From positions 32,001 through 96,000 of the forward strand of contig CAWEXU010000013.1 in NCBI GenBank assembly GCA_963813075.1: a DNA stretch of 64,000 nucleotides, given 5' to 3'. A program made the translations under genes and the position numbers. The notes beneath the pieces are model-generated. The model was not told where the DNA came from and made no database searches. It worked only from the letters and a program-made list of their open reading frames with translations. Position 1 is the first letter of the stretch, and every line of letters begins with the position of its first letter. The stretch is from Methanotrichaceae archaeon. GTDB lineage: Archaea > Halobacteriota > Methanosarcinia > Methanotrichales > Methanotrichaceae. This document shows, one piece after another, positions 1 through 17,815 of the stretch.

Positions 1-206
1 AAATATAACTGTTTTTATCAATATTTCGATGCAAATTTCGCACGTCGATGTGGTGTCCAAAACCCTGGGAGATGCGCGAAAAGCCATTGCATATCGAAAA
101 TCGCTTCGAACAGAGCCCAACTTTCTGAAAGTATTCATCAAAGTTGACGGTATGTGCGAAAATCGGCTTTTTTTCGATAGCAGTAAAGGCCGAAAAACGG
201 CCGCTC
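1..206 (+). promoter_or_regulatory. Putative CRISPR leader (partial, runs off window start)
   Basis: Non-coding, AT-rich start, directly before repeat 1. Repeats end in ATTGAAAC (usual 3' end) on + and internally degenerate repeats are at the far end, consistent with + transcription from here. Confidence 0.6.
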
Positions 207-1429
207 GTATCCATGTCTGAAAAGACGTGGCCCAATTGAAACTTCAAATGCTGAAACGACCGTGAAGAATGATCGATGCATATCCATGTCTGAAAAGACG
301 TGGCCCAATTGAAACTTAAATGGCATGCTCCCCAGCGTTTGCGATGCCTGTTCCTTTCCATGTCTGAAAAGACGTGGCCCAATTGAAACGCTATTGCACC
401 GTGAGCGTTCTGTGACATCGCATTCCATTTCCATGTCTGAAAAGACGTGGCCCAATTGAAACAAGTCAGCATATTGCGCTGTCCATTCTAATTGATTGTC
501 AACTTTCCATGTCTGAAAAGACGTGGCCCAATTGAAACGATCTACGACGATTACAATGTCCAGTCTAACTTGACATCTATCCATGTCTGAAAAGACGTGG
601 CCCAATTGAAACACGCATCTCGATCTAGCGCAGCTCTCGAAATAGCTCATGACACTATCCATGTCTGAAAAGACGTGGCCCAATTGAAACGGCGCTAGCC
701 AGCGCTAAGTCACCTCATCCAAATCCACTATCCATGTCTGAAAAGACGTGGCCCAATTGAAACCTAAGTTGCACACGATAGTTCAGATTTCGCAGACCCT
801 ATTTCCATGTCTGAAAAGACGTGGCCCAATTGAAACCGTGACATCGTTACTAATAGCCTCAGACGTGTCCTCATCTATCCATGTCTGAAAAGACGTGGCC
901 CAATTGAAACATGTATCATTGACAGCTATATCAGATTGCTTCACCAGCATCTATCCATGTCTGAAAAGACGTGGCCCAATTGAAACCTTCACTATCGGCG
1001 TTTCACAATCGTGATTCCGACTATCCATGTCTGAAAAGACGTGGCCCAATTGAAACTGTGGCAACTGCCACTATACATATGCTGATCCAATCCGAACTAT
1101 CCATGTCTGAAAAGACGTGGCCCAATTGAAACACTTTCCGTTCTACGCGGGCGCGAATCAGTACGATCAGCTATCCATGTCTGAAAAGACGTGGCCCAAT
1201 TGAAACAGACAATGTTTTGTGATTCTGATGATCGAGTGTTTACCTCTATCCATGTCTGAAGAGACGTGGCCCAATTGAAACTGCTACTGGATGTTCATCG
1301 GGATTCGGCCGATTGGGCAAGGATCCATGTCTGGAGAGACGTGGCCCAATTGAAACTGGAGAACGGATCCTTTGCCACGATTCGCAAAGCCAACTATCCA
1401 TGTCTGAAAAGACGTGGCCCAATTGAAAT
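207..1429 (+). CRISPR. CRISPR array, 17 repeats of 36 bp (consensus CTATCCATGTCTGAAAAGACGTGGCCCAATTGAAAC), 16 spacers of 34-42 bp
   Basis: Repeats start at 207, 280, 354, 427, 503, 577, 655, 728, 801, 875, 951, 1021, 1097, 1171, 1246, 1321, 1394. Hairpin CCATGTCT-GAAA-AGACGTGG. Repeats 15-17 carry substitutions. Confidence 0.99.
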
Positions 1430-1514
1430 GCAATGATCCCTCCGACGTATTATATTAGCCCTCCCTAAAATCTATGGGAAACTTATTTATTCATTAAGCT
1501 GTTCTTCGTATTGA

Positions 1515-4010
1515 ATGAACGCAGTCCTTCTGGGCGCCCTGCTCCACGATTTAGGCAAAGTCGGCCAGCGGGCTGGCCTTTCTGGGAATTGCCATGAGAT
1601 CGCCTCATCCCTTCTAAAACCACTCCTTTTGCATGGCATGGAGGATGCAATAGATTTAGAATCAGTGCCTGATGCCGGAGCCATTCTCAACTCGCCGGAA
1701 AATGAATCTGCCAGGGTCCTGATTCTGGCTGATTGGATCTCCTCCGGCAGAAGTGATGATACGCAAGCATTTGAAGCTGCATCTCCTCTGCAATCCCTTT
1801 TTCCTCTTGTAGATATTAAAAAAGGTGATCTTCCTGGATCTGCTTTTTACTCACCCAAATCTCTGAGCATTTCCCGTGAGGTGATTTTCCCATCTGACGA
1901 AATGCAGGATATCGCCAAAGCCTACAACCGTTTATGGAATTGCCTGATAAAAGATCTCGCTCTCGTCCAAAGAATCGAGAGATCACAGGCCTTATACTAC
2001 TACTCTGCTCTATCTGCTAAAGCGGCACACCTGGGCCGTTCCCTTTGCGGTCACCAGGGCTGCAGGATATTTCCCTCTATGACCATTCCAGAATTACCTG
2101 CGCTATCGCCGCTTGTTTGATGAAAGAAGATGTGATGATGAAGTCTCACAGGACGATGCTCTCGGAAACGGCTGGAAAGGAGAGATTCCTCCTGGTGGCA
2201 GGCGATGTCTCTGGCATTCAGGACTTTCTTTACACCATCACCTCCAAAGGAGCGGCCAAGGGACTTCGAGGACGCTCCCTCTATCTTCAGCTCCTCTCCG
2301 AGGCCGCAGCCAAGTTTATGCTGCGGGAATTGGGCTATCCTCCGGCTAATCTTATCTATTCCGGCGGCGGCCACTTTTACCTCCTCATAAGCTCTGCTGA
2401 CGAAAAACGACTGCAAGATCTAAAGCTGACACTGGAAAGAGCCCTTCTCAAAATGCATCATGGCGACATGTTTCTGGCCCTAGGCTGGACCAAGATGACC
2501 GCCCGTGATCTGCAGGGAACCTCGGATGGATACACTGTCTGGTCTCTCTACTAAATGGGGCAAAGCCATGAACTCCGGCAGGCATATCCAAGCTGCAACG
2601 ATTCTCCTTGCTGGGTTCGGAGGCCTACCAGGAAATTTTCGGCCTGAATCCTGATGAAAAAGGTGGCAAGCGCTCCCGTCTGCGATGTCTGCAAGCGAGA
2701 GGGAGACTTTGTGGTATCGAGCTGAAGGGGGCTGGTACCGATGGCATTCACCCAACCCGGAGAAGGCCTTCTGCGATCATTGCAAAACCTTCGAGAAAAT
2801 GGGCGAGCGGCTGCCTAAGACGAGAGTATCTGATTGAGGTCCAGGGAGGCCGGAAGGATGATCCTCTGGAAAAACGCCATCTTTGCACCTTCGAGCCCTT
2901 TGGAATTGAATACTACTATTACAGCCGGAACAAGGATGACCTTGATCACCTCATGAAAAACTTCCACGAATCAGAGGTTGACAGTCTATTCCCTGGGGCC
3001 GGACAATTTTATCGACGAAAAGCTAGCTAAGATTGCCGCCGAGAATCACGCCGCTCTCGGATTTCGCCTCATTGCCAGGACCACCCCAAAGACTGGCAGA
3101 TGGGACGATTGCCGACCTGAGCGAGCTTGCCGAACGCTGCTGCGGCGTTCCCAGAATCGGCATTCTTCGCATGGATGTCGACAATTTAGGATTGGTCTTC
3201 TCCGAAGGTCTGGGAAAGAATGCCACGCTCTCGCGCATCTCTACCTTGAGCACTATGCTCTCCATCTTCTTCGACGGATGGATAGATAGGATCTGTCAGG
3301 AATGGCCAGATAAGGCATATCTTGATCTACTCAGGAGGCGATGATCTCTTCATTATCGGTTCATGGGATGTGATTCCGGAGATTGCCATGCGCATCAGAG
3401 AGGACTTCAGGGTTTTCACCTGCAATAACCCCAACTTTTCTTTGTCTGGAGGGATTACAATTGCTGATGAGAAGTATCCTCTTTACAAGTCGGCAGAATC
3501 AGCCAAGAAGGCATTGGACGATGCCAAGTCCAGAGAGAAATATGGTGTGGTGGAGAAGGATGCAATTTCATTCTTAAAAGAGACCATGGACTGGACTGAG
3601 ATGCGCATCTCCTAGTGAAATTGCTGACCTACTTAAATTGTGTTTGAAAGTTGAGCGAAAGGGCAAAACACTACCCAGATCGGTCCTCTGGAATCTTTAC
3701 TCTGCCTGGGATCTATATTGGAAAAAAAGAGACCTTCTGAAGAAAAGGATGCTTTCTCAAGAAGATGTTGAACGTTTAGCCCTCCACGACAGGTGGCGTT
3801 GGAGATTGATTTACTTCTTGGACCGGGCAGGAGGCAGGAGCAAGGGATTCGAGAGAGGATCTTGCCGAGATTAAGATCGCCATCTTGAAGAACGAATGGA
3901 AGGGGACTATCAGCCAGAGGGATTTGATCGAATACTTGGGAGTGCCGGCCAGGTGGGCCGAGCTGCTCACCAGAGAGGTAAGTCATGAATCAAAGCGGAA
4001 GAAGGGATGA
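1515..4010 (+). CDS. cas10: Type III-A Cas10/Csm1, split by multiple frameshifts
   Basis: N-terminal HD motif LLHDLGK; ISLYDHSRITCAIA; LVAGDVSGIQDF; LRGRSLYLQLL; LRMDVDNLG; YSGGDDL palm motif; spread over ORFs 1515-2120, 2045-2554, 3033-3344, 3322-3615, 3638-3874 and others. Confidence 0.93.
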
Positions 4011-4396
4011 GGAAAGGCAGCAAAGGGCCAGCATCGAGGATGAGGTTTCAAGCCATATCTCTAAGGTCGGCTCCTTTAAGGAATACACCGGGGATCTTCT
4101 AGTGAAGAGACGCAGAGAACCTCGCCGGATCGATCCAGGATCTTAAGACCGCTCAATTGCGCCGGATCTACGGTGAGGTCAAGAGAATGGAGATGGACTT
4201 CAACAAGGGCGAGGGCTCTTTTTCCAGAGATAGAGTGGTCATGCTCAAGCCTAGGCTTGCTTATGCCGCCAGCAAAAAGCCGGAGGTCATTCGCATCAAG
4301 AATGTATTCTCTAAATGCATCGATAAGATCCAGGGTCCTGAAGACTTCTCTCGATTCGTCAGCTTCTTTGAGGCCATTTTGGCTTACCATAGGTGA
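3985..4396 (+). CDS. csm2: Type III-A small subunit Csm2 (one frameshift)
   Basis: TAQLRRIYGEVK...LKPRLAYAA...FVSFFEAILAYHR; ATG at 3985 overlaps the cas10 end. Confidence 0.9.
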
Positions 4397-4402
4397 TTAC
4401 AA

Positions 4403-5236
4403 ATGACAAAGCTTTTGGGCAAGATCATCATTGAGGGCAAGATAATCGCTCTTACCGGGCTTCATGTGGGCGGTTCGAGCACGGGCATGGAGATTGGAGG
4501 TGTGGACAGCGTGGTGGTGAGGGATTCCATAACTCGCAGGCCCTACATTCCAGGCTCCTCGCTTAAGGGCAGTCTGAGAAGCCTCATGGAGAGATCCGAA
4601 GACAAATCCATTCAATAACAAAGTTGCAAACTCCTGGATTCACATGTGCAAGGACCTAGCGGACTTTGAAAAGTGCAGCGTCTGCCGGGTTTTTGGTGTC
4701 ACCGCTGACTCCATCAAGACTGCCCGAGTCGACTGAATCTGGCGAGACTGACAATACTATGCCTACCCTTACTCGTCTGATGGTCAGAGATGCCATGATG
4801 ACTGAAGAGACTGCCAAGACACTGGAGAAAGCGGAGACTGATCTTCTCTTTACTGATGTCAAGACCGAAGTGGTCATCGATCGCATCACCTCCCAGGCGA
4901 CGCCTAGGCAGATCGAGCGCGTCCCGGCAGGATCTGAGTTCGGCTTCGGCATGATCTTCAACATCTTCGTGAAGGAGGATTCAAATTTCCTAAAGCATGT
5001 CTTCCAGGCCATGGCACTCTTGGAGGATGACTCTCTGGGTGGTCAGGGATCTCGCGGTTACGGCAAAATAAAATTCGAAATTGAAAACGTGGCCTGGCGT
5101 CCTACAAAATTACTACGCTACAGGCCAGGGCGAGATACCGCATATTAACGCAGATATGAATTCCGTTGCCCTATCCGGGACGAGTTTGCAGACAGATCCA
5201 ACAGCAGATCGATTGCTTGAATCTCGCTGGTGAGCC
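4403..5236 (+). CDS. csm3: Type III-A RAMP Csm3 (frameshifted; 3' end approximate)
   Basis: TGLHVGG, PYIPGSSLKGSLRSL, KTEVVIDRIT..PRQIERVPAG, LGGQGSRGYGKI. Confidence 0.92.
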
Positions 5237-6240
5237 ATGCCTGATTTTAGCTATTATCTTATCAAGCCCAATGCACCGTTCCATATCGGCGAGCGTGGCG
5301 TGGGCTTGGAGGAAACCTCGGCAATGCTCCACTCCGACACTCTCTTCGGAGCGATATGCTGGGCCTGGAGACTGCTTTATGGTGAAGAAGATCTCCTTGA
5401 ACTCCTGGATTTGTACTGTCAGGCCAGACCACCCTTCCTCATATCCTCAACCTTCCCCTTTATTGGCAAGACGATGATTTTACCCAAGCCCTTGCATGGC
5501 CTGGGACAGGCTGGACAGGAGAAGAACTTCCGGCGGGCTTCATTGATCTCGCATTCCATATTTCAGAGCCTGGCTCAAGGAAAAAGCCTTCTGGATTGCA
5601 GTTACAAAATAGTTCGAGGAGATCCTGGAAATGTAATTGTCTCACCTCAAGAAGCCACCCAAATTCAAGATATGGTAGGCACAGGCTCAGCATGGACAGT
5701 AGGCGAGGCTCCCCGAGTAACCTTGGATCGTGACACAAGACGATCGGATATCTACTACGCAGGAGATGTCAGATTCATGAAAGATTGTGGTCTGTACATG
5801 CTGGTAGATTTCCTGGATGCAGCTTATAAATCTAAGTTGGAGGGCGCCTTGCGTCTTTTAGGTGATGAAGGGACTGGGAGGAGAAAGGTCTTCCGGAAGA
5901 GGCTCTTTTCTCTTTATCTTAGACCCAGGTTCACTGTCTTTAGGATCTGATGAGGGTGATGGGGCGATGCTTCTCTCCCTGTGTCGTCCACGAAGAGAAG
6001 AAACCGCTATTCTGCCCAGATCTTATTACGGCTTGATCACAAGAAGAGGCTGGGTGGCAGGCAAATCCGACAAGAGGAAGAGAAGCGTGAGAATGCTCGT
6101 CGAGGGTTCAGTAGTCCCTTGCGGACCGGAGAATTTGCTTGGTTGCATGGAGGACGTAGGTGGCGAAGGAACACGAAAAGGCAAAAAGAATCCTCTCTTA
6201 TGGCCTAGCATTTAAAGCACCCATGAGGATGGGACAATGA
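5237..6240 (+). CDS. csm4: Type III-A RAMP Csm4 (frameshifted)
   Basis: FHIGERG, HSDTLFGAIC, ISSTFPF, PRVTLDR, GLGGERSSGRG. Confidence 0.9.
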
Positions 6241-7334
6241 GATATATTCTTCATTTCATTACGCCTCGTGCATGTGGGCAGCGGACTGAAGCTGGGCAAG
6301 ATGGACTACGTTGTCAGAGGCGATCGGGTAATGATAATAGATCTGCAACGCCTCGTCTCTCTTCCCGAAAGTAGATCCGGAAGAGCTATCCGATGCCATG
6401 GACATGAGGAACTTTGATATTGGCGCTTATTTGCGCGCAAGGGCATCGATCCGGCACAGGTGGCATCATATTCAATACCCTGCGGCGGCCTCCTCAGGGC
6501 GAAATCATTTGCTGCCTGAAGGATGGATTAGGAAGTCCATACGTGCCTGGAAGCTCGCTAAAAGGTGCTCTAGAACAGCAATTCTCTGGGAGAGAATCAA
6601 GAACGATTCAAGCCTGATGAATGAGGCCAGAGATAAGATCGAGTCCGCAATAGAGCGTGCTGGACCGAGGAGTTCGCGGCCTGGGCAGCGCAGCCTCTGG
6701 AGAGATTGTTTTTGGGAAGAGATCCTGTCAAAGGAAATCACCCCAATTATGATCACCTTCGCGCTCTGAAAGTGTCAGACACCGACATCATACCCAAGGA
6801 GCAGCTCCAGTGCTTTGATGCAGCTGTGAGGAATCTGCAGCGGCGACAGACTTGAGACGAAAATGACGTTATGCGCCGAAGCCTTCCGGCCAGGTACAGA
6901 GACCCAGATCTCTTTAGACATAGATCCGTTCCTTCTCAGAGATGATATTCAATCAAAGCTTAATTTAAAGGTGGAAGATCTGAAGGACCTGGAAAAAATC
7001 GCTAGATCTTATTATTCTGATTATATAAAGTCTGAAATTGATTTCTTCTCGGAATATGATGAACCAGTTCCTTGTGATTTTTATAAGAAACTGCAATCCC
7101 TTAATGAAAGAAAGAGGCGGAATGCTCTTAAGGGCTGGATGGGGATCGGGTTGGCATGGGATGACTGTGGCCAGGCTATTTCCGGATCTTCTTGACGATA
7201 TCCGTGATGCATTCCGTCTCGGGAGAGCAAATGTTGCTGAGTTTCCGAAGACCAGAAAGCTGGCGCTTATGGATGATGATCCAAAATACCAGATGCAACC
7301 CTTTGGATGGATCTTGGCAAGGCCGATCAAATAG
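6237..7334 (+). CDS. csm5: Type III-A RAMP Csm5 (frameshifted)
   Basis: VHVGSG, PYVPGSSLKGA, LRAGWGSGWHGMT, FPKTRKL, QPFGW; ATGA overlap with csm4. Confidence 0.87.
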
Positions 7335-7354
7335 AGGTTCTGGGGGCATCACCT

Positions 7355-8543
7355 TTGGAGGAAAGCGATCACGTTTCTCGGCATACAAAATTATGCTGAA
7401 ACCACATATTTTCTGAATGAAAAGAGCTGCAGGACAAATCTCTTTCCAGAGGCTCTCAACAGTTTCTTTAGTCCAGAAGAGATTCTTGTATTCCTCACCA
7501 AAGATGCAGAGAACAAGTATCTGGAAATCCTATCAAATCGCCTAAAGGGAAAAACGTCATTACGTCCAATCTCCATCCCAGACGGAAAGAATGAAGCAGA
7601 GATATGGTCAATCTTCGAAAAATTGACTCAGAATGTGGACAGCGGCGACAGGATCATATTTGACATAACGCATGCCTTTAGGTCAATACCTTTCCTGGCC
7701 ATAATAGCAGTCTCTTATCTTCGGGCTGCAAAAGATATGGAGCTTGAAGCCCTTGTCTATGGAGCATATGAAGCCAGAGTGGATGATAGAAGCCCCGTAT
7801 TTGATCTGACACCATTTATCACGCTATTGGATTGGACAAATGCTACAGATAAATTTGTTAAGACTGATCAGGGTTCAGAAATAGCTCACCTCCTCAGAGA
7901 TGCTCACCAGGTAGCTTATAAAATTCCCGAATCCAGAGATGGCCGACAGCCACCCAGAGAGCTGAAGAACATAGCTGCAGATATTGAAGAAATATCAAGG
8001 GCAATGCTCCTGGCCCGATCCGAGGAGGTTATGAACAAAGCATGGAAGATGTCCAACCGGCCAGACAGCTGCAGAAAGGAAGCAGATGATTGGGCCAAAC
8101 CATTCTCGCTCTTGATAGATCGTATCAATCAGGAATTCAGTCCACTTTCTCTCCAGGATCCAAGGAAGGATATAAATCATCGTCTGGCTATAGAGCTTAA
8201 AATACAGAGGCGGCAGCTGGAAAAAGGCCAGGTCATACAGGCAATATTGCTATCAAGAGAATGGGTAGTGACTTACTACACATCGCTTATGGGCATGAAT
8301 CTGCTGTCTGACCGAGAGAAAGCAGAGGACATGCTTAATAGCATGGCAAGATCTACGATCTCGACAGAGAACAGTTCAGAAGAAGAGTCTGAGCTGATTG
8401 GAATCTGGAGAGATCTGATCCAGTTGAGAAATGATGTCGCCCATTGTGGAATGAGGAGCAATCCTATGCAGTCAGGAAAGCTTGTGACAAAAGCAGAGGA
8501 AGTCGTTTTGAGGTTAAGCAAGATAAAGCAATTGCAGCCATAG
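7355..8543 (+). CDS. csx1: Csx1/TM1812-family CARF-HEPN effector (cOA-activated RNase)
   Basis: Frame is open upstream of the listed ORF (KAITFLG..Y.ETTY, IPDGKNEAEIWSIFE); CARF motif FDITHAFRSIPF; HEPN RNDVAH near C-terminus. Start inferred at TTG 7355 with a 1-nt indel. Confidence 0.85.
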
Positions 8544-8545
8544 CC

Positions 8546-8932
8546 ATGATAATAATAAATTTCGCCCATCCACTTACCAATGACCATCTGGATCAGATTT
8601 CAGTGATAACAGGCGAAAATGTCGAGAAGGTAATTGAGATCAACAGCAACATACGGACCGAAGAGCCATTAGCTCCTCAGGCCATTGCATTAATCGACAA
8701 TGTAGTCCTTTCTAAAAGAGAATGGCAGACTCTTTCCATTCTCATAAATCTGCCTTCACTCAACTACACCACAGCAATTTTGATTTCTGAAATCCATGGG
8801 AGATGTGGATATTTGCCTACCATTATCAGGATGAGGCCGGTAAAGGGAGCATTGCCAACAAGGTTCGAGGTGGCCGAGATCATCGATCTTCAAGCCCTGA
8901 GAGATGCAGCTCGCGCCAAAGGATTAGCCTAA
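8546..8932 (+). CDS. csx15: CRISPR-associated Csx15 (putative ring nuclease / cOA binder)
   Basis: MIIINFAHPLT start, LINLPSL, EIHGRCGYLPTIIRMR, FEVAEIIDLQALRD; directly after csx1. Confidence 0.8.
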   Translation: MIIINFAHPLTNDHLDQISVITGENVEKVIEINSNIRTEEPLAPQAIALIDNVVLSKREWQTLSILINLPSLNYTTAILISEIHGRCGYLPTIIRMRPVKGALPTRFEVAEIIDLQALRDAARAKGLA

Positions 8933-8946
8933 GACCATAAACAATG

Positions 8947-9976
8947 CTATGGGCCTTTTTCCATTCTGAACATTCCATTGCCAATTGAAGCCCCCTTTCC
9001 TACATGAATTATTTGTCCGAGCGAAAGCAGGGCCATGATATCCTTTGAGAAAGATCCTCTGTAGACGATCTCTCCCAAAAAGTGAGGAGGCTGCCAGTGA
9101 GACTCATTTTGCATATCGGTTCTGGCGATGGAGATGAACCTCATCCACAAAGGCTGATACTTGCTCCACCTTTTCAGCCTTTTCCAGCATATCCTGGCAT
9201 TCTTCAGGGCTGTAGAGATATCCTGTTCCATGCGAAGATGATAGCATATTGGCACGCAAGAGCAAATGCCCTAGAAGCATCCCAAAGGACGGGACGAGAC
9301 GAATATCCACTCCCGTCTCCGATATGCGTTGGCGTTAGAAATCTCAAGGTTACAGAGCCATCAAACTTTTCTGCCTGCCCGAGAAGATCCAAATAGCTAA
9401 AAGTGCTTATCTTGCTCTGCAGATTGCCGTTATTGTACACTTGTTTTCTTTCCTGGGGAGACAGACTGTCATGCTGACTCCAGATCGAATCTGCCGCCTC
9501 CAATATGGCGATCTTGTCCTAGACCCGATTTCCCAAGATCTCTTAAGGCCAAAAACAGATATGGCAGACTATCCAAAGCGGACCCGATCACAGCAAAGCC
9601 AACCGTTGCGCAGTCTTCGGGACTGTAAGAGCCAGTAGCCGGCGGCTTGAGAATCAAAGGCAAAGGGGCCTCAAATGACCTGAGAGAATCATTTTGGTCT
9701 TCCAGAGGAAATGATGTAAATAGCCTGCCATAGCTGCAGCATTGAGATAATTGGCAATTTTTTCTGCAATGGCGGCGTTCCATTATCGCCTTTGAAGGCT
9801 CTTCTTGGATTATGGATATAAACGGCACAGACACGGTCTATGAGCTTATTGCCCAAGCCAGCCCTAAAGCCGTTTCCTGCCCATAAAGGAATATGGGCTT
9901 GGGTGAGGAATCTTATTCTCGCCTCCAGCAGACAGATTTGAATATCACCCTTTCTTTGGAAATTTGCACGAGCCAA
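8947..9976 (-). CDS. cas6: Cas6-family endoribonuclease (frameshifted)
   Basis: GNGFRAGLG, Cys cluster C..C..CCSY..LF, GLGQDR..GGGRF, LRFLTPT, C-terminal Gly-rich loop HVGKGASIGNG. Confidence 0.8.
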
Positions 9977-10906
9977 AGGGTCTTCTTTGATGCCTCTTGA
10001 TTATTCCATTTCCATCTGCAACAAACGACCCCATTCCAAAATGCGCCGCGTATCCCAACAGCCAGCGGCCCCTGCACCGGCTCTAGGAAGTGGATGCGAA
10101 ATCCATAGGCTGCTCGGCTGGATGCTTTTATCCCATGGGAGTTATCATTGCGCACGCTCTGGAAGTTGGACCAGAATACCTTGCTCTCGCCCAGATTGCG
10201 TGCAGGGCACTCGCTCCACCATTGCTGGCACTGGAAATCCGCCCAGCTTCAATAGTCTTCTCAGCTCGTGCTCTGGGCTGTCGATCTGCAAGCCTGTGGC
10301 ATCTCGCTTGGCAGCGCCCGCCCGCGTGATCTTGGGGTGGCGGGTGGGAACAAAAGGCAGGCGTGAAATCCATGTTCGGGATTTGGCTAGCAGTGAACAC
10401 CGACCCAGCTCCAGGTCTGTTCCTCCAAAATCCTCTGGCTGGCCCATGCCCAATAGCGAAAGATGAACATCAGGAACACTTCCACCGTAGACATGCTCCA
10501 ACTTTTGCAGAGCTTTCTGATCATGGGAACTGAAACCGGTCGAGGAAGAAACTGTGACATGAGTTATCTCTCCCTCGTTCCCCCTTCCCAGCCCCAGATT
10601 TGATTCGCAGAAGATGTATGCGTGCTCGTGGCCCTTTAAAGGCCGATGTGAGCTATCGCAGCCCGTGAATACACTGGAGCCATTGGAGAGCTCAACTAAA
10701 GCCAGATGAATTCTCTCTGCCAGGAGAAGAGCCATTGTCAGCTTTGGAGGCTGGTCGCCTGATACAAGAAATCTGGCCACAGATGGATCTTTAGCCATAA
10801 GACCCGACCTGACCAAAGATAGGCTACTTGATTTTAAAGTACGATTTGGTGATCTGGAATTAGGTTGCATAACTCTATAGTAGTCTCCTGTTGGGCGAAA
10901 TGGCAT
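9945..10906 (-). CDS. Stand-alone Cas6-like C-terminal half of type I-G Csb2 (frameshifted)
   Basis: GHEHAYIF, SRTWISRLPFVPTRHPK, GFRIHFLEPVQGPLAVGYAAHFGMG (read across two indels); about 300 aa versus roughly 500 aa for full Csb2. Confidence 0.72.
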
Positions 10907-10978
10907 TCAAAGATAAGTACTTTGGGGAGTCGCGGACGGAATTTATGACCCATAAGACATATATATTGACATTATAAA

Positions 10979-11012
10979 TTATCCCTGTCTGAAAAGACGT
11001 GGCTCATTAAGC
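10979..11012 (+). repeat. Solitary degenerate CRISPR repeat
   Basis: TTATCCCTGTCTGAAAAGACGTGGCTCATTAAGC; hairpin largely retained; ends 18 nt before ATG 11031. Confidence 0.85.
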
Positions 11013-11030
11013 TTATTGTGAGATGTATGA

Positions 11031-11680
11031 ATGAACAGGTTAACCCAATACTTCCGCGCCAACTGGGAGAGCATCTTGATTGAAGCCATTCTCCTACAAT
11101 TCTTTATAGCAGGCATTCTCGAGGGTAATCTGATCTTTGCAACGATAGCCGCAGTAGGTGGACTGGCGTTGTTGGCATTAATCTATAAAACGATTGCTAT
11201 ATTCGGTCAATGCCAGAAGCCCTTACGCGGCCAGAATATCGCCTTTCAGGTGCCTCGACGTGGGTATGATTTTCACAGTTGGCCGCCAACCTGACACCAT
11301 CCGAATGGCTCTAAAACATCAGAAAGCGGAGTATGTAGCTTTCTCTGCTCAGCAAGATCGGAGACGTGGCCAATCAGTTGATGGAGGAGTTCGCTCTCGA
11401 TGAAGATCACTGTAAGAAAGAGGTGGTCGACCCGCAGAATATCGAGGAAATCCGACTGAAGACTGGCACTGATCCTTAACTGGCTGAATGCAAAGGGGCT
11501 CAGTCCGATTGAGATATCGCTGCAGATATCACAGGTGGTATGACGACAATGTCTGTAGGAGTCTTTTCTATGACTGAAGAGCGCAATGTAGATAGCCAAT
11601 ACATCTTCTGCCGCCAGTATGAGAACAATAGATGTGTGGATGGCACCCAGGAAGCTGTATTCGTCAGCCGTTACAATTAG
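11031..11680 (+). CDS. Two-TM + CARF domain protein, Cam1-like (frameshifted)
   Basis: Hydrophobic N-terminus ILIEAILLQFFIAGIL / LIFATIAAVGGLALLALIY, then IFTVGRQP, and CARF motif ADITGGMTTMSVG in the frame ending TAG 11680. Confidence 0.72.
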
Positions 11681-11777
11681 GGTAAGTTATTGAGGAGGAT
11701 GATGGATTGATCTCGTTAAGTGTCACAATTGATGCTCCTCTTTTTAAAGGTTCGGATATTCGAGAAGCAATGATGTA

Positions 11778-11810
11778 TTGTCCATGTCTGAAGAGTCATG
11801 ACCATTCAAC
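11778..11810 (+). repeat. Solitary degenerate CRISPR repeat
   Basis: TTGTCCATGTCTGAAGAGTCATGACCATTCAAC aligns along the consensus; stem CATG.CT/AG.CATG kept. Confidence 0.65.
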
Positions 11811-12047
11811 GGCGAGCCTCGATTGTATCCAAGCCACCCCGGCGTTGAGGGGACCAGGGCATTAGCGCGGGAGGCCCGGAGGGCCGACTCGCGGCGTGCA
11901 CAAAAAAAATAGTCTGTGTAAATCAATCTTAGCCTTGATAACAGCCTAAATTCGAGAACTCAACTATGATGACATTCGAGATCTTTCGATCCTCATCAAA
12001 GCAGTTCAAACTTTTCGCCTAGGCCCGCCTGGCGAATTTTCCCTTTA
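11801..12047 (+). repeat. Dispersed ~240-bp element, copy A
   Basis: Shares GGCGTTGAGGGG, GCGTGCACAAAAAAA, TGTGTAAATCAATC, AGCCTTGATAACAGCC, AAAGCAGTTCAA and GGCCCGCCT blocks with copies B-E. Confidence 0.85.
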
Positions 12048-12065
12048 ATATATCTCAATGCCAAA

Positions 12066-12295
12066 ACCATCGACGGCTAATTCCGATCTATCTGGCTTTG
12101 AGGGGCCCCCTTTGCCTGCGTCCCGGTGGGCCGGCTCGCGGCGTGCACAAAAAAACAGTTTGTGTAAATCAATCTCAGCCTTGATAACAGCCCTGGATTC
12201 AAGAAATCGACTATAACGGTAGTCGAAATCCTTTCGAGCGTCATAAAAGCAGTTCAAGACTATGGCCTGGGCCCGCCTTGAGATTTTTCATTTAA
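12066..12295 (+). repeat. Dispersed ~240-bp element, copy B (tandem to A)
   Basis: Same conserved blocks in the same order and orientation as copy A. Confidence 0.85.
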
Positions 12296-12306
12296 TTGCG
12301 TTATGA

Positions 12307-12834
12307 TCAAGGCATCCCCAGGCGTTCCTTTATCGCCCTGATATCGGATTGCATCTGCTGGAAGTTCGAGACGTATCCAGGCTGGATGTCTTCCCTCATG
12401 CCCTTGATCTCCTCAAGGGTCGCATCAGTAGTTTTTCGCACTGCTCTGACCTCATCGAGGGTTGCGTCGGAAGTTTTCCGCACCGCCTTCAGATCATCTC
12501 TCATATCGAGGAGCAGCGGGATGGCCTTATCCAGTTGAACGAATGAGCAGAGCATGGCAACCTCGCTGGTTCGACCAACCTCGCCTTCGTAGGGCTCAGA
12601 GGTCACTTCAGTGACTTGAGCAAGCTCTGGCCTATCATTCTCAATCTTTTTGAGGAATGCTTTGATTCGAGCCTCATCCCCTTCTACCAGGGCAATCACT
12701 TGTTGCCTGCCGTCTCCTTCCCAGTTGTAGGTAGAAAGCCCTGGCAGGGCGGTGTTCATTGCGTTCTTGAGCAAGAACACCCGGTAGCCGACATCATGCA
12801 CCTTTGGACCGGCGAGAGTGATCTTGAGTTTCAT
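12307..12834 (-). CDS. Acylphosphatase-domain protein with C-terminal coiled coil
   Basis: GPKVHDVGYRVF acylphosphatase signature; internal duplication VRKTSDATLDEV / VRKTTDATLEEI. Confidence 0.8.
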   Translation of the reverse strand: MKLKITLAGPKVHDVGYRVFLLKNAMNTALPGLSTYNWEGDGRQQVIALVEGDEARIKAFLKKIENDRPELAQVTEVTSEPYEGEVGRTSEVAMLCSFVQLDKAIPLLLDMRDDLKAVRKTSDATLDEVRAVRKTTDATLEEIKGMREDIQPGYVSNFQQMQSDIRAIKERLGMP

Positions 12835-13069
12835 TTTCGATCCTTATGTCCTCCCTGATATGAAAGGATTTGGGTGTGATCTTCTGTCTCCTGCTGCAAA
12901 AGTACTTACGATTTTTCAGAACTGACATACGCATAAAAAATATGGTGCATCCGGCAAAAAGGTTTATCAACGGCGCATATATTCACCAGGGGGAGGTAAA
13001 TTGAGCTTTCTGCTAGTCGAAAGTGAATTTTGTTCTGATTATTTCTTAAATGTAGTTGGCCAGGCCTTC

Positions 13070-13250
13070 ATCTCTCTGGCGTTGAGGGCCCCCTTTGCCT
13101 GCAGCCCTGTGGGCCGACTGGCGGTGTCCCAAAAAAAGCGGCCTTGTGTAAATCAATTGGCCTTATTACAACATAGTGCTGAAACGCCCATGAGCCGGGG
13201 CAGGGGATCAAACGCGGCGGATAAAAATCGAGATGTTTCGACATCATGAT
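13070..13250 (+). repeat. Dispersed element, copy C (diverged 3' half)
   Basis: TCTGGCGTTGAGGGCCCCCTTTGCCTGC...GGGCCGAC...CAAAAAAA...TGTGTAAATCAAT..GCCTT matches copy B. Confidence 0.75.
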
Positions 13251-13342
13251 CTTGATTTACATGCGAAAAGACGCCGTCCTATTGGATTAAATTTTAAGGG
13301 ATACCAACACTTTAATACTATTGATTGCAGATAAAACTAAAG

Positions 13343-13621
13343 ATGAGTTCCAGGCCCTGGACCATAAAGCTGGATGAAAATGGCAGGATTCAGCTCCCAG
13401 CAGACTTGAGAGCCATGCTTAACATGAATCCCGGCGATGAGTTCATTATAGACGATGCTACAAGCGATATGATACTGCTTAAGAAAATGGATCTATCTGC
13501 TATAATGAAGGGAATAATAGAAGAAGCCAGGAATGTGGATCTCGATAAGCTTGAAGGGGAGATCGAGGAAGAGGGCAATAGGATTGCACGAGAGAAGTAC
13601 AAGATTTTTGCTGGACACTAA
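13343..13621 (+). CDS. AbrB/MazE/SpoVT-family antitoxin
   Basis: IKLDENGRIQLPADLRAMLNMNPGDEF swapped-hairpin motif; overlaps the PIN gene. Confidence 0.85.
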   Translation: MSSRPWTIKLDENGRIQLPADLRAMLNMNPGDEFIIDDATSDMILLKKMDLSAIMKGIIEEARNVDLDKLEGEIEEEGNRIAREKYKIFAGH

Positions 13622-13946
13622 TGTTTTCATCGCTGCCATAAGACGGGGATGGACGAGGTCAAATGATCTGGTTATAGAAAATACGCTAATGAATTTGGCG
13701 GTTTTGGCCAGATCTTGTTTTATCGTCTCCAGCAGAAGGTTGAGGTCTTGGAGTTATTGGATGACGATATCGCCAGATGCCAGCCGTTTTTTCCCAGAAG
13801 GCCAGGAGGCTGATGTCCTTCATGCAGCCACATGTTTGGGCGCAGGTGGAATCCTGATCTCAAACGACAAGCATTTTGAGAGGATTAGCAACGCCGGAAT
13901 TGTTGAAGTATGGACGACTTCCGAAGCAATAAAAAGAATTATCTAG
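13584..13946 (+). CDS. PIN-domain (VapC-like) toxin, centre apparently deleted or frameshifted; start approximate
   Basis: RFLLDTNVFIAA, ADVLHAATCL, LISNDKHF motifs; the central part is short and reads poorly. Confidence 0.7.
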   Translation: MHERSTRFLLDTNVFIAAIRRGWTRSNDLVIENTLMNLAVLARSCFIVSSRRLRSWSYWMTISPDASRFFPEGQEADVLHAATCLGAGGILISNDKHFERISNAGIVEVWTTSEAIKRII

Positions 13947-14000
13947 GATGGGGAAAATAAATCTCGAAATAAGGGAATGACTAAATAAATAATCACAAGA

Positions 14001-14030
14001 ATCCCCATGTCTGAAAAGACGTGCACCATC
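14001..14030 (+). repeat. Solitary partial CRISPR repeat
   Basis: CCATGTCTGAAAAGACGTG is an exact 19-nt match to the array repeat core, about 55 nt after the vapC stop. Confidence 0.85.
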
Positions 14031-14151
14031 CCGCCCGGAGAATTCAATCATGATTATAAAACAGTTGACATTCGGTCTTGCATATGGATATGAATTTTCA
14101 CGCTGACTTTTCATTCCACATACAATTAATATTCATATTGTTACATCTCAT

Positions 14152-14327
14152 ACCATCAACGGCCAGCCTCGTTTGTATCCAAGCCTCCCCGGCGTTGAGG
14201 GGGGCCCAGGGCATTAGCGCGGGAGGGCCGGAGGCCCGACTCGTGACGTACACAAAAAAAAACAATCTGTGCAATTAAAATTAGCCTTGATAACAGCCTG
14301 GATTCAAGAATTCGAATATGATGACAT
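14152..14327 (+). repeat. Dispersed element, copy D (3' truncated)
   Basis: Close match to copy A from ACCATCAACGGC to ATGATGACAT. Confidence 0.85.
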
Positions 14328-14474
14328 GATTGTTATATAAAATACACAGAATATGCGTTTATCACGTCGAGATTTGACAAGCAAAAAAATAAAATGGCCG
14401 GACTTTCAAGGACGCTGCTCTCCATCTCGGCCTCTATTGGGGTCGTAGTTGTCTCCACCAGGCTCCGTTTTTGC

Positions 14475-15968
14475 CTACCCTGCCTGAGTCTTCGGATCAA
14501 ACTTTATGGCTCTATCATACACTATCTCCGAGTAAGATGGCCCGGTCTTTGTAGCCTTTTCCAGGTACATCCTCCAGAAAATCATAAGAGGCTGATCCAG
14601 AGCTATGCCGTAGGCCCCAGGACCGGTGGGAACCTCAAGGCAATTCAGATCGCCATTGCAATTCCTGGCAATCTTGTAGACATAGAGGTATTTCGCGTTG
14701 GGATTGTCAGGGAGGTAATCCTCGGCAGTTCCATTGAAATTCGCATCGTGGACTGTCCCAACACCATTCCAACCAGCTGCGCCGTATATGGTAGCACTTG
14801 AATATGTTGTCTTTTCTGTGGCTACATGGTTGACACCGTAGATGATTATGAACTCATTTGGATCGCTTCCCAAAGTAACTGTGGGATGCGGTTGGAAATC
14901 ATAGTATTTCGAGAGATCAGGGAATGAAGGTGTCGGCGAATAGGTAGTTAGGTTTGATGTCCATAGGTAGCATGCATCGTTGTCTGGCCCCATGGCATTG
15001 ATTCCCCTCTGAATTCCATCTGAAGGGACTAGCATACTTGTTGGAAGTTCTGTAGCACTCAAATTGCTATATGTATTGAGAATCTCCTTCTTCAACTCTT
15101 CTAGATCATCCATAAGGTCAAACTCTGTAGTTCCCGTCCCGCGGACTCTTAGCTTTGGGAAATCATACGGATCCAGTTTCGTAGTTAGGTTGGGAGTAAC
15201 TCGGAAAACAATCGCTGGTGTGTTATTGAGGTAGTCATCGCCCGCCTGTTCGTCTTTGTAGAAAGCTGGACGCATGGCGATAAGAAATTTGTCAGAGTTA
15301 TTTTCTACGCCCAAATTCAGCATTGATGATGGAAGCACCTGGGTGTTGAACAAGTTGTCTGGATATCCTGCTGATATTGCAGCCGCCCGGATGCGTTGAT
15401 CGATGCCCCTGTCGGCCGTAGCGACTATCACCGTGGTTTGATTGAATGGATTTCCGGCCGCTCCATTTGGCGTTCCTTCAGTATTGATAACTAGATTATT
15501 CACAGTGTCGCCTAAGTTGGAGAAAATCCATCTGGTCTCATTTCCATAGGTCCTTTCCACCAGTTGTAGATCGAAGCTGAAGTATCTGCACTCTGGGGGT
15601 GTCCTTCCCACGAATACAACGGCTTCATCAGGACCAAGATTCCAGAAAGCAGATGCGTTCAGGTCTATTCCAAGAGTTGCGGCAATTTTTGCAATCTCTT
15701 CAGGCAACTTCTGGCCAGGTGCCGGTGGGACAAAATATGTCAGGTATTTTGTGCTGGGGTTGTTTCCAAGTGCATTAGGCAGCACTCGCAAATCATATAA
15801 CTTGATGACATCAAAAAAACCTACCGTGCCTTGCTGCACTGTGAATCCATCTTTTTCTAAAGCTTGTTGGAAGGAATTCACATCACCTATTTTCGGATCT
15901 TGTGCGAGGCCAGTTCCTATTAACACGGCCAACACAAATCCAAGAGTCATATAGCGTTTCAGTTTCAT
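14475..15968 (-). CDS. Secreted hypothetical protein (497 aa)
   Basis: Signal peptide MKLKRYMTLGFVLAVLIGTGLA; long intact ORF with several N-x-S/T sequons. Confidence 0.8.
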   Translation of the reverse strand: MKLKRYMTLGFVLAVLIGTGLAQDPKIGDVNSFQQALEKDGFTVQQGTVGFFDVIKLYDLRVLPNALGNNPSTKYLTYFVPPAPGQKLPEEIAKIAATLGIDLNASAFWNLGPDEAVVFVGRTPPECRYFSFDLQLVERTYGNETRWIFSNLGDTVNNLVINTEGTPNGAAGNPFNQTTVIVATADRGIDQRIRAAAISAGYPDNLFNTQVLPSSMLNLGVENNSDKFLIAMRPAFYKDEQAGDDYLNNTPAIVFRVTPNLTTKLDPYDFPKLRVRGTGTTEFDLMDDLEELKKEILNTYSNLSATELPTSMLVPSDGIQRGINAMGPDNDACYLWTSNLTTYSPTPSFPDLSKYYDFQPHPTVTLGSDPNEFIIIYGVNHVATEKTTYSSATIYGAAGWNGVGTVHDANFNGTAEDYLPDNPNAKYLYVYKIARNCNGDLNCLEVPTGPGAYGIALDQPLMIFWRMYLEKATKTGPSYSEIVYDRAIKFDPKTQAG

Positions 15969-16384
15969 ATACTAGAATCCTCCTTACCACAGGTTTGCTA
16001 TAATTATTATCTATGCACTATCTATTAAAAACTTTGGTTAAAATACAGATCTCTTGGGTAGAATAATTTTGGATCGTGAGTTGGAAGGCCAAGCAGATAA
16101 AAGAACTAATAGTGCGTATCATTTGGCAACGGTAGGAGCTGACAACACGGACGGGAGGCGCGGGCTGCGCTTGGAGATCAATAAGGCCGCTTGTTTTAGC
16201 CCGCCGGGCGCATATTTGTCTAATTATTAAACTCTGAGGGCTTCTTCCGAAATCTACCAGTACAACGGATGAGATCCTGCCAGACTCTGATTGGACGAGA
16301 TGTACAAAGTGATAACCTTTGAGCCTCATTCAGATTAGCCGCAAGACCAAGACTCATGCCACCAGTCTACCTCTGCCGCCAAGT

Positions 16385-16516
16385 AGTATCCAGTCCTCCC
16401 CGGCATTGAGGGGGCCCAGGGCATTACCGCAATTTTTCTGATATTCGGCATCCTTCGAGCCTCATAAAAGCAGTCCATCCTTCAGCCGGGCCCGCCTGAC
16501 GAATTTTCGCTTTTAA
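16385..16516 (+). repeat. Dispersed element, copy E (internally deleted)
   Basis: 5' block GTATCC..CCTCCCCGGCATTGAGGGGGCCCAGGGCATTA joined almost directly to 3' block TCATAAAAGCAGT...GGCCCGCCTGACGAATTTTC. Confidence 0.8.
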
Positions 16517-16570
16517 CAAGAAAGAATATATCAAAGAAATGCCGATGTTCTGTGGCGAGGACGGTTAGCG

Positions 16571-17815
16571 TTGGCGGACAAAAGCCAGAAATCAGCGAGC
16601 CCAAGACAGATCCCTGCCACACAGATCCTGGCGGAGATAGAGCAGGGCGTGCCCGCGGAGCACAATGAGGTTCAGATCAAGGGCGACCTGATCATCGGTT
16701 ATGCCAACCTGCCGGTCGTTGAGGGGAAGCTTCGTGTCAGCTCTCCCATAAAGATAACCAACTGCCAATTCGAGGGAAAAGTGATCCTGGCACGGACCAT
16801 ATTCCTGGATTCGGTCGACCTCAGGGGATCGACATTTCATCAGCAGGCCAGTTTTAGCGGTTCCGTCTTCAAGTCGATTGCTGACTTGGGAAATGCCCGC
16901 TTTAGGGGTGAGGTCAGTTTCAACAAAAGCCAGTTTGAGGATGAGGCCAGCTTCAACCGGGCGGTCTTCGAAGAGAAAGCATTCTTCAGCAAATCGCTCT
17001 TCAAAAAGGAGTCCTACTTCAGAAAATCCGTATTCCAGGATGATTTGAGCTTCAACCGCTGCCAGTTTGAGGGGGATGCCTATTTCAAGGGCTCGGAGTT
17101 TCATAAAAAGGCCTTGTTCAGAAAGGCCAATTTCATTCACGATGCCGACTTCAGCCGCTCCCGCTTTATAGGAGAGGCAAACTTCGAATCCGCCCGCCTT
17201 TTGGGCGATGCATTCTTCACCGACGCCTCCTTTGAGGACGGGCTGGTCCTCACCCGGACCAAATATGAGAAGCTGTACATCCGCTGGAAGAGCTTAACCC
17301 GTCCAAAGTATCCATTCCCGTACCTGGAGCGCCTGGAGAGGATAAGCAAGCTGAAATTCGACAATAGCGATGGCGAGACCGCATACTTGCTCTTGATAGA
17401 CAACTTCAAAAAGCTGGGCTTCTTCGAGGACGCCGACGACTGCTACTATCACTACCGAAATGTGCGCCGTCAGAACCTGCCCGCACACTACCGGCCCATC
17501 GACTGGATACTGATGGCCTCCTATGGCTACGGCGTCCGCCCGGTCCGTCCCCTGGTTCTTTCCGCAAGCTTCTTCCTGGCTTTCGCCCTCTTTTATGCCG
17601 CCTTTGGAGGTTTCTTCAGCCCCGCTGGGGCCCCAAGCCCGGCCGAGGCGGCAAACCTCAGCCTTACCCTCCTTCTCTCCGGCTCCAAGCTCATCTCCGA
17701 TCCCAACGCTGCCGCCACAGGGGCTCTATACTTCATCTACACTTCTGAGAAGCTGATCGGCTCGTTCTTCTTTGCCCTGTTTCTGATCTCAGTGGGCAGG
17801 ACGATAATCAGATAA
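16571..17815 (+). CDS. Pentapeptide-repeat protein with C-terminal membrane domain
   Basis: Repeated A-x-F-x-x-S/A-x-F units; ADDCYY and YGYGVRP motifs followed by hydrophobic helices. Confidence 0.85.
   Translation: MADKSQKSASPRQIPATQILAEIEQGVPAEHNEVQIKGDLIIGYANLPVVEGKLRVSSPIKITNCQFEGKVILARTIFLDSVDLRGSTFHQQASFSGSVFKSIADLGNARFRGEVSFNKSQFEDEASFNRAVFEEKAFFSKSLFKKESYFRKSVFQDDLSFNRCQFEGDAYFKGSEFHKKALFRKANFIHDADFSRSRFIGEANFESARLLGDAFFTDASFEDGLVLTRTKYEKLYIRWKSLTRPKYPFPYLERLERISKLKFDNSDGETAYLLLIDNFKKLGFFEDADDCYYHYRNVRRQNLPAHYRPIDWILMASYGYGVRPVRPLVLSASFFLAFALFYAAFGGFFSPAGAPSPAEAANLSLTLLLSGSKLISDPNAAATGALYFIYTSEKLIGSFFFALFLISVGRTIIR

Follow-up and report, generated by a model that had tools for sequence, protein, structure and literature searches.

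The 64,000-nucleotide stretch of a Methanotrichaceae genome analysed here, the window, covers positions 32001-96000 of contig C13 of genome G000 (G labels denote genomes, L labels compared loci and C labels contigs of G000). It carries, in order, a CRISPR leader and array, a type III-A block, a leftward gene for a Csb2-Cas6 fusion, a rightward gene for a Cam1-like protein with transmembrane (TM) and CARF domains, an acylphosphatase-family gene, and an abrB-vapC toxin-antitoxin (TA) pair (Table 1). Four solitary repeat-like sequences lie outside the array, at 10979, 11778, about 13253 and 14001, and the initial annotation proposed that they bracket the toxic genes, either as Cas6 sites in the toxin mRNAs or because these genes had entered an old array like giant spacers. 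We consider it probable that the solitary repeats are what remains of tandem CRISPR arrays, namely their ends and internal units, and that recombination, acting on the repeats and on the trailer that closes arrays of this genome, brought in or removed the genes in between.

The copies were scored with a profile built from 23 repeat variants of G000, with the reversed genome as control, which gave no match at 20 bits or more and one at 18 bits or more. The copies at 10979 (33.7 bits) and 14001 (27.7 bits) are clearly above chance, that at 11778 (19.1 bits) is borderline by score alone and settled by its context, and that at 13253 (4.6 bits) is not significant by score alone. Of the first 28 repeat letters, 25 are matched at 10979, 23 at 14001, 20 at 11778 and 16 at 13253, and all four copies have the orientation of the array, as the initial annotation had noted. 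Its distances are also accurate for 11778 (97 nt after the TM-CARF stop at 11680, given as about 100) and 14001 (54 nt past vapC, given as about 55), and the copy at 10979 does precede the TM-CARF start, although the gap to the ATG at 11031 is 16 rather than 18 nt. The Cam1-like gene and the TA pair do lie between copies, but so does the acylphosphatase-family gene, between 11778 and 13253. That three copies keep the hairpin is overstated: against -11.3 kcal/mol for the array repeat, the copy at 14001 folds clearly (-8.2 kcal/mol, 7 bp; 1 of 200 shuffles as good), that at 10979 has one stem mismatch (-6.6 kcal/mol; 16 of 200), that at 11778 is no better than shuffled sequence (-5.5 kcal/mol; 95 of 200), and folding of 13252-13288 gives no repeat-like stem. 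As for whether repeat fragments are equally frequent beside unrelated genes, the two other solitary copies of at least 20 bits in G000, C4:142600 and C24:14102, are both the same terminal-repeat-plus-trailer element as 14001; the remaining matches at this level are two C10 repeats severed from their array by an insertion sequence (IS).

The copies at 14001 and 11778 correspond to array ends. On C7, C10 and C17 the last repeat of the array breaks off immediately ahead of its 8-nt handle, and a conserved trailer follows; the junction and trailer at 14001 are identical in kind, and further partners of this copy in the alignment are relics on C24, C4 and C7 that have no leader or a single repeat. 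Among the 58 other genomes of the genus, two match the segment 14001-14160, at seven loci, all of which have the truncated repeat with the trailer and five of which have an array or leader directly upstream. At 11778, the remnant of a repeat runs directly into the second part of the trailer, at a position orthologous to the terminal repeat of the array in G028. In that genome the locus consists of mevalonate genes, a cas1 remnant, cas2, a leader, two repeats, a truncated repeat, the trailer and the acylphosphatase gene, which is the layout of the window minus 1.4-11.8 kb, and in G012 it consists of a leader, a single truncated repeat and the trailer. The syntenic locus of both genomes is thus without the 10.3-kb csm-cas6-Cam1 block. 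L044, a locus known from csm4 onward that is syntenic with, and 84.5% identical to, window positions 5032-11674, has downstream genes as in G012 and a csm block directly before the trailer. Because the array of the window ends without a trailer, and G028 and G012 run straight to the terminal repeat, the 10.3-kb block is placed between the array and the array's own terminal repeat; either its gain or its loss would have passed through the repeats or the trailer. Zero-spacer arrays, in which a leader, a single truncated repeat and the trailer follow one another, are seen at C24:14066-14275 of G000 and at L121.

The weak copy before the TA operon, which the initial annotation placed at about 13255, is a repeat of which the 3' half (13 of 20 letters) is present and the whole, with its hairpin, is not, since it is split by a MITE (miniature inverted-repeat transposable element) whose right end makes up the rest of the match. 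This element, of ~85 bp at 13186-13270, is multi-copy, contains no open reading frame (ORF), and matches at both ends an IS110 element (PF01548) of G000, three copies of which (C7:403-2068, C7:108322-109980 and C10:94893-96550) lie directly behind a repeat 3' end with a different spacer after each. Among 105 genomes of the order, 32 contain the left part common to MITE and IS. Among the 24 loci shown from outside the window, six lie behind a whole repeat and one (L145) within a repeat loop, and most of the others are at non-CRISPR sites that have this short motif in common; a further insertion into a loop is at C4:142450, and the target motif occurs twice per repeat. As an observation on the element itself, the IS110 copies, which have short subterminal inverted repeats, and the MITE (L144-L167) target a TGAAAC-like motif in repeat 3' ends, in loops and at non-CRISPR sites. 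The notion that 13253 is merely an IS end was rejected, because L057 and L087 carry a whole repeat there. Among 27 abrB orthologs with scoreable upstream sequence (the window's own locus, L086, is left out of the count, as are L098, L108 and L109, which have no scoreable upstream sequence), a whole repeat stands at -94, -94 and -93 in L057, L087 and L111 (3/27), with three stem types; L090 and L093 have decayed repeats, and L106 has one probable chance match. The sequence on C4 continues from a repeat split by a MITE into a 35-nt spacer, a terminal repeat and the trailer, and the 0.7-kb TA operon of the window occupies the corresponding slot. The split repeats of C4 and the window need not share descent, since their stem types differ.

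The trailer flank of true array ends is present at 14001 and 11778 and absent at 10979 and 13253. Arrays occupy orthologous places in G028 and G012 for 11778 and in L036, L047 and L054 for 10979, and for 13253 the corresponding place in L093 holds two decayed copies. Copies are decayed in L044, L090, L093 and at 13253 of the window, near-perfect in L068, L057, L087 and L111, and abut truncated genes in L057, L087, L039 and L040, as expected of scars. At L057 394, L039 6658 and L040 875, a coding sequence or stop codon reaches the first base of the repeat, with the leader absent and 2-5 letters of microhomology; these junctions could have formed by ordinary deletion or by Cas1-Cas2 joining of a chromosomal end at the leader-repeat junction.

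On the reading we favour, cas, TA and other genes would have been gained or lost through recombination at the repeats and the conserved trailer, either by insertion into an array or by deletion between repeat copies, along a homologous or microhomology-mediated route perhaps assisted by the IS110 recombinase. Most of the copies would no longer be functional, and that at 10979 probably goes back to an ancestral arrangement with the Cam1-like gene directly behind the terminal repeat of an array. The idea that the genes occupy an old array in the manner of giant spacers agrees with the layout in the G028, G012 and C4 comparisons, although gain and loss are indistinguishable in them. According to the accessible part of a preprint by Shmakov et al. 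(bioRxiv 10.1101/2023.03.03.530964), an excess of repeats flanks type III operons, type III mini-arrays were judged to be degraded, and solitary repeats were proposed as recombination targets, with a degenerate repeat at an "empty" Francisella V-A locus. Some observations nevertheless weigh against leftover ends as the explanation. Position is conserved while stem letters vary with repeat type, both before abrB (-93/-94, with three stem variants in the 3/27) and before the Cam1-like gene (-52 to -54). Moreover, 19 of 20 stem-loop letters are kept at 10979, against a background of 21 changed third codon positions among 75 between L044 and the window; this would suggest that the copy is under selection or was renewed recently. 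No recombination event was caught in the reads of public runs. If the copies are relics, they show a way in which these methanogens remodel their immunity, namely by having or lacking a type III effector block of ~10 kb in the interval from an array to the terminal repeat belonging to it, and the locus provides a named, well-resolved case for leftover repeats as exchange points of cas loci.

Table 1. Genes, repeat copies and trailer units at the locus, in window coordinates.
Feature	Position	Strand	Remarks
Leader	1-206	+	
CRISPR array, 17 repeats of 36 nt	207-1429	+	Closes with full-length repeat; usual trailer absent
Type III-A block: cas10, csm3, csm4, csm5, csx1, csx15	1515-8932	+	Frameshifted in assembly
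Csb2-Cas6 fusion gene	8947-10798	-	9 frameshifting indels in assembly
Solitary terminal-type repeat	10979-11014	+	One stem mismatch; 3' handle decayed
Cam1-like TM-CARF gene	11031-11680	+	Broken in assembly; intact in close homologs L044, P0019, P0022
Truncated terminal-repeat remnant	11778-11800	+	Joined directly to trailer unit
Two tandem copies of ~250-bp trailer unit (dispersed palindromic element)	11801-12296	+	
Acylphosphatase-family gene	12307-12834	-	Behind trailer in G028 as well
Partial trailer unit	13070-13157	+	
Probable decayed 5' half of split repeat	13168-13185	+	Weak, by eye
~85-bp MITE, both ends common with the genome's IS110 element	13186-13270	+	Within repeat loop
3' half of split repeat, 13/20 letters	13269-13288	+	Whole repeat there in L057, L087, L111
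AbrB/MazE-type antitoxin gene	13343-13621	+	Own conserved TATA-like box at 13310
vapC (PIN) gene	13602-13946	+	58-nt deletion at ~13680
Truncated terminal repeat	14001-14029	+	Hairpin retained; 8-nt handle gone
Conserved array trailer	14030-14327	+	~120-bp proximal part plus trailer unit (14150-14327)
Further partial trailer unit	16386-16513	+	Orientation as other window units

Just upstream of the window (C13:29509-31834), an inverted trailer unit cuts cas1 short and a TnpB-like ORF lies inside the gene; the truncation is common to G028, where the TnpB-like insert is absent. Fragments of a PolA-like gene recur beside CRISPR ends and TA rows, in L068, L057, L077, L141 and at C17:18-1019 of G000.

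Processing of the toxin mRNAs by Cas6, as the initial annotation proposed, fails for abrB-vapC and is left with the Cam1-like gene as an unlikely candidate. The TATA-like box of the TA operon, conserved and recognized by eye, is downstream of the split repeat, so that the repeat is predicted to lie outside the TA mRNA, and the hairpin has been destroyed by the MITE. The pair belongs to the AbrB-PIN family of VapBC-type TA systems, but its PIN toxin is not intact: the missing 58 nt include the codon of an acidic residue that is conserved, and they are likewise absent from an independent contig that crosses the deletion point. In the 16 orthologs that could be scored downstream of vapC, no clear repeat was found there (the best, in L093, is equalled by 1 of 60 shuffles). 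Repeats at the same positions in orthologous loci, for which the initial annotation had proposed to look, are found in some loci before abrB (3/27 clear) and before the Cam1-like gene (4/30), and in none clearly after vapC. TA genes also stand between an array or repeat and a Cam1-like gene in other Methanothrix-related loci, as hicBA in L043 (69-1363) and, in L036 (400-768), as an antitoxin gene and what appears by eye to be a truncated pemK-like start.

The copy at 10979 might be a Cas6 site retained in the Cam1-like mRNA leader, which we regard as doubtful and which is compatible with the other three copies being relics; in that case the transcript would begin at the repeat and the product of the back-to-back Csb2-Cas6 gene would bind or cut it, leaving a leader of ~24 nt and tuning the toxin to Cas6. 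The intact ortholog in L044 (3912-5765), which matches window positions 8947-10798, is one Csb2-Cas6 protein of 617 aa rather than the two Cas6 proteins assumed initially; such a fusion, of Csb2 (with a Cas5/6g C-terminal part) to Cas6, serves a type III-A locus in the window, L044 and L006. Intact orthologs of the Cam1-like protein have hydrophobic N-terminal helices, seen as hydropathy peaks, and a CARF domain (PADLOC CARF_2M, E 2e-24), and their best match among solved structures is Cam1 itself (PDB 8T64, E 9.6e-7). The repeat begins 52 nt before the Cam1-like ATG and ~25 nt behind a TATA-like box, a promoter predicted by eye, that is common to L044. A 10-letter motif that may be a promoter element stands directly before the start in the leaders of both cas10 (~1495-1515) and the Cam1-like gene (11005-11031).

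Of 30 Cam1-like homologs (duplicates L038 and L045, partial genes L048, L049, L051, L057, L058 and L060, and distant homologs L061-L067 and L079-L085 are omitted from this count), four have a repeat at the same spacing, namely L036, L047 and L054 (-52) and L068 (-54). The Methanothrix-type repeats of L068 and L036 are significant (0 of 100 shuffles as good for each), the former lying behind an inverted IS110 fragment and the latter belonging to a two-repeat mini-array, and in L047 and L054 the Cam1-like gene starts 15 nt behind the terminal repeat of its own array. The best matches in L039, L040, L069 and L044 fall in the same register and are not significant (17-81 of 100 shuffles as good), and the other 22 homologs have no repeat upstream. 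Among 20 loci checked on the 3' side, several of them short, L039 and L040 show a truncated repeat shortly past the Cam1-like stop codon, at 4 and 1 nt respectively; the gene is thus bracketed by repeats in another lineage, and the sister locus L069 has a leader and an array there instead. A sampling of 401 genomes of the class of G105 gave three Cam1-like matches, of which the two new ones are mid-operon without a repeat. In L047 (4048-6001), L054 (5944-5986) and L084 (7924-7977), the distance from an array's terminal repeat to the start of a CARF effector gene is 5-18 nt, too short to accommodate a promoter; in L047 a CARF-RelE gene begins 5 nt behind the repeat, and in L084 the start of a Csm6-type gene is ~53 nt from the start of the repeat.

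The recurrent spacing, the other CARF genes behind terminal repeats, the shared TATA-like box and the conserved stem-loop letters at 10979 argue for a Cas6 site, as do, in a non-significant way, the traces in the same register. They are opposed by the homologs that have no repeat or such a trace only, by the closest intact locus, L044, which has lost the stem, and by the mismatch in the stem of the window. In addition, the repeats in L036, L047 and L054 are plain array ends, where a repeat of 37 nt plus a ribosome site yields -52 without regulation, and the tree is compatible with one origin followed by decay. The wider proposition, which we regard as doubtful too, is that CARF effector genes repeatedly come to stand directly behind a terminal-type repeat (in Methanothrix-related archaea, Chloroflexi-like loci and Meiothermus), that the pre-crRNA is where their mRNA arises, to be released or gated by Cas6, and that 10979 keeps this site after loss of the array, coupling the Cam1-like toxin to cas6. 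A live site would tie an ancillary toxin to crRNA processing at the post-transcriptional level; a literature search, with subscription journals mostly outside it, found no type III case of this kind.

The solitary repeats might alternatively be passengers fused to one copy of the ~250-bp trailer unit, which would be the working part, a dispersed DNA site that captures or shuffles TA and defence modules. The core of this unit is present in 43 copies in 37 clusters of G000, often as same-direction series 1-3 kb apart, and the unit is matched in 33 of 59 genus genomes, in about ten of them in multiple copies. Of 27 PIN/HicB/nucleotidyltransferase loci in G000, seven have a unit at a distance of 1.5 kb or less, where 1.1 would be expected and none of 5000 random placements does as well; a CRISPR repeat is near only two of the 27 (323 of 5000 placements). 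Rows of units in G010, G028, G012 and G001 (L136-L142) hold PIN, ParE/RelE, HicAB, TumE and nucleotidyltransferase genes; in seven unit regions of four genomes, hand-picked for having several units, same-direction units separate TA modules in five and terminate tandem arrays in another. These counts and rows indicate that it is the trailer unit more than the repeat that brackets toxins. One hairpin pair of the unit shows a compensatory change (26 C-G and 8 G-C of 37) and is the sole covarying pair in the consensus folding; the hairpin loop is G-N-A, a loop typical of single-stranded DNA hairpins. Nevertheless, no recombinase was found beside the units in G000, where the single tyrosine integrase is on C18 and the Y1 transposases are not at unit clusters, and units and TA genes may merely share variable islands. 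Rfam gave one match on 10900-16600, at chance level (E 0.55), and no family for the unit. An integron or CALIN was rejected for the lack of an adjacent tyrosine recombinase and for the mixed orientation of the cargo, which also counts against module capture in the manner of integron cassettes. We hold the unit to be an improbable explanation for the repeats, although, as an element that delimits TA modules, it may be the larger unknown.

We consider it very improbable that the copies yield guide RNAs of the CreA/CreR kind that repress TA or cas promoters. In type I loci, TA genes with a repeat-like sequence as neighbour are overrepresented, as stated in the accessible part of Shmakov et al. 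(bioRxiv 10.1101/2023.03.03.530964), and the mini-array before the Cam1-like gene of L036 would suit such a role. Comparison of eight pseudo-spacers (36 nt on either side of each copy) with window positions 1-17000, however, gave nothing better than shuffled sequence apart from the trailer matching its own copy, so that the complementarity to cas or TA promoters suggested in the initial annotation was not found; the 16 array spacers have no self match in the genome, the 8-nt handle is missing in three copies, and the effector is type III-A.

Because essential genes, those of ribosomal S9 and isoprenoid enzymes, are frameshifted in the error-prone G000 assembly, broken ORFs should not be read as pseudogenes without a second source, for which we used contigs from four public DNA runs of four studies, excluding contig joints with sides of 20-37 letters as cross-matches of repeats or trailers. 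Frameshifting indels number 8 in 6.0 kb of housekeeping genes (compared with G028) and 32 in 6.2 kb of cas genes (compared with L044), and in the cas6 stretch the contigs of the four runs concur with one another against the letters of the window. That the entire cas locus is a pseudogene was rejected on these grounds and because close Cam1-like proteins are intact; the cas block may be intact in the living organism. The contigs span all four solitary copies, and letters were compared at 13253 (X7 record 27: 2 differences in 365) and 14001 (X2 record 12: 1 difference and 1 gap in 280). In RNA runs, at most 0.08 of the sequence words were present. Despite the quality of the assembly, there is next to no likelihood that the solitary copies are chance matches or artefacts, a possibility already refuted for 14001 and 13253, because scores far exceed the control, independent contigs concur at these two positions and relatives have repeats at the same places.

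Of known systems, the standalone repeats and mini-arrays in the accessible part of Shmakov et al. (bioRxiv 10.1101/2023.03.03.530964) are most like those of the window, in that copies lie beside a type III operon, are not conserved across relatives, have no guide targets and have TA cargo nearby; they differ in that the copies here are assigned singly, as a terminal repeat with a genus-level trailer or as a MITE-split repeat, and in that a whole effector block lies between array and terminal repeat. CreTA/CreR, as described in the accessible part of the same preprint, likewise places divergent repeats beside a toxin in a CRISPR locus, whereas in the window there is no spacer with a promoter match, handles are lost, the effector is type III-A, and the toxins are proteins with their own antitoxin or a switch operated by cyclic oligoadenylate (cOA). 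Cam1 is a TM-CARF effector that depolarises the membrane when gated by cyclic tetra-adenylate (cA4), according to the accessible text of its report (PMC11229360), which makes no mention of a repeat in the mRNA leader such as that predicted here. The gene family of the window shares with it the N-terminal TM helices and the CARF domain in a type III locus, but the window gene is distant in sequence and broken in the assembly, and its cA4 ligand and pore are putative. Members of the IS110 family with repeated targets include IS1000, an end of which is identical to Thermus CRISPR repeats (PMC6352166, accessible part), and ISPpu9, which inserts in REP sequences (PMC12288879, accessible part). The IS110 transposase element of G000 resembles them in lying three times directly behind a repeat 3' end, and differs in being archaeal, in having an ~85-bp MITE derivative and in occurring also in a repeat loop and at non-CRISPR sites. 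Finally, with respect to the trailer unit, integron cassette arrays and REP-type palindromic elements provide direct-oriented palindromic units that separate small TA modules with their own promoters; the unit described here differs from them in its length of ~250 bp, cargo in both orientations, the lack of an adjacent integrase and the lack of an Rfam family.

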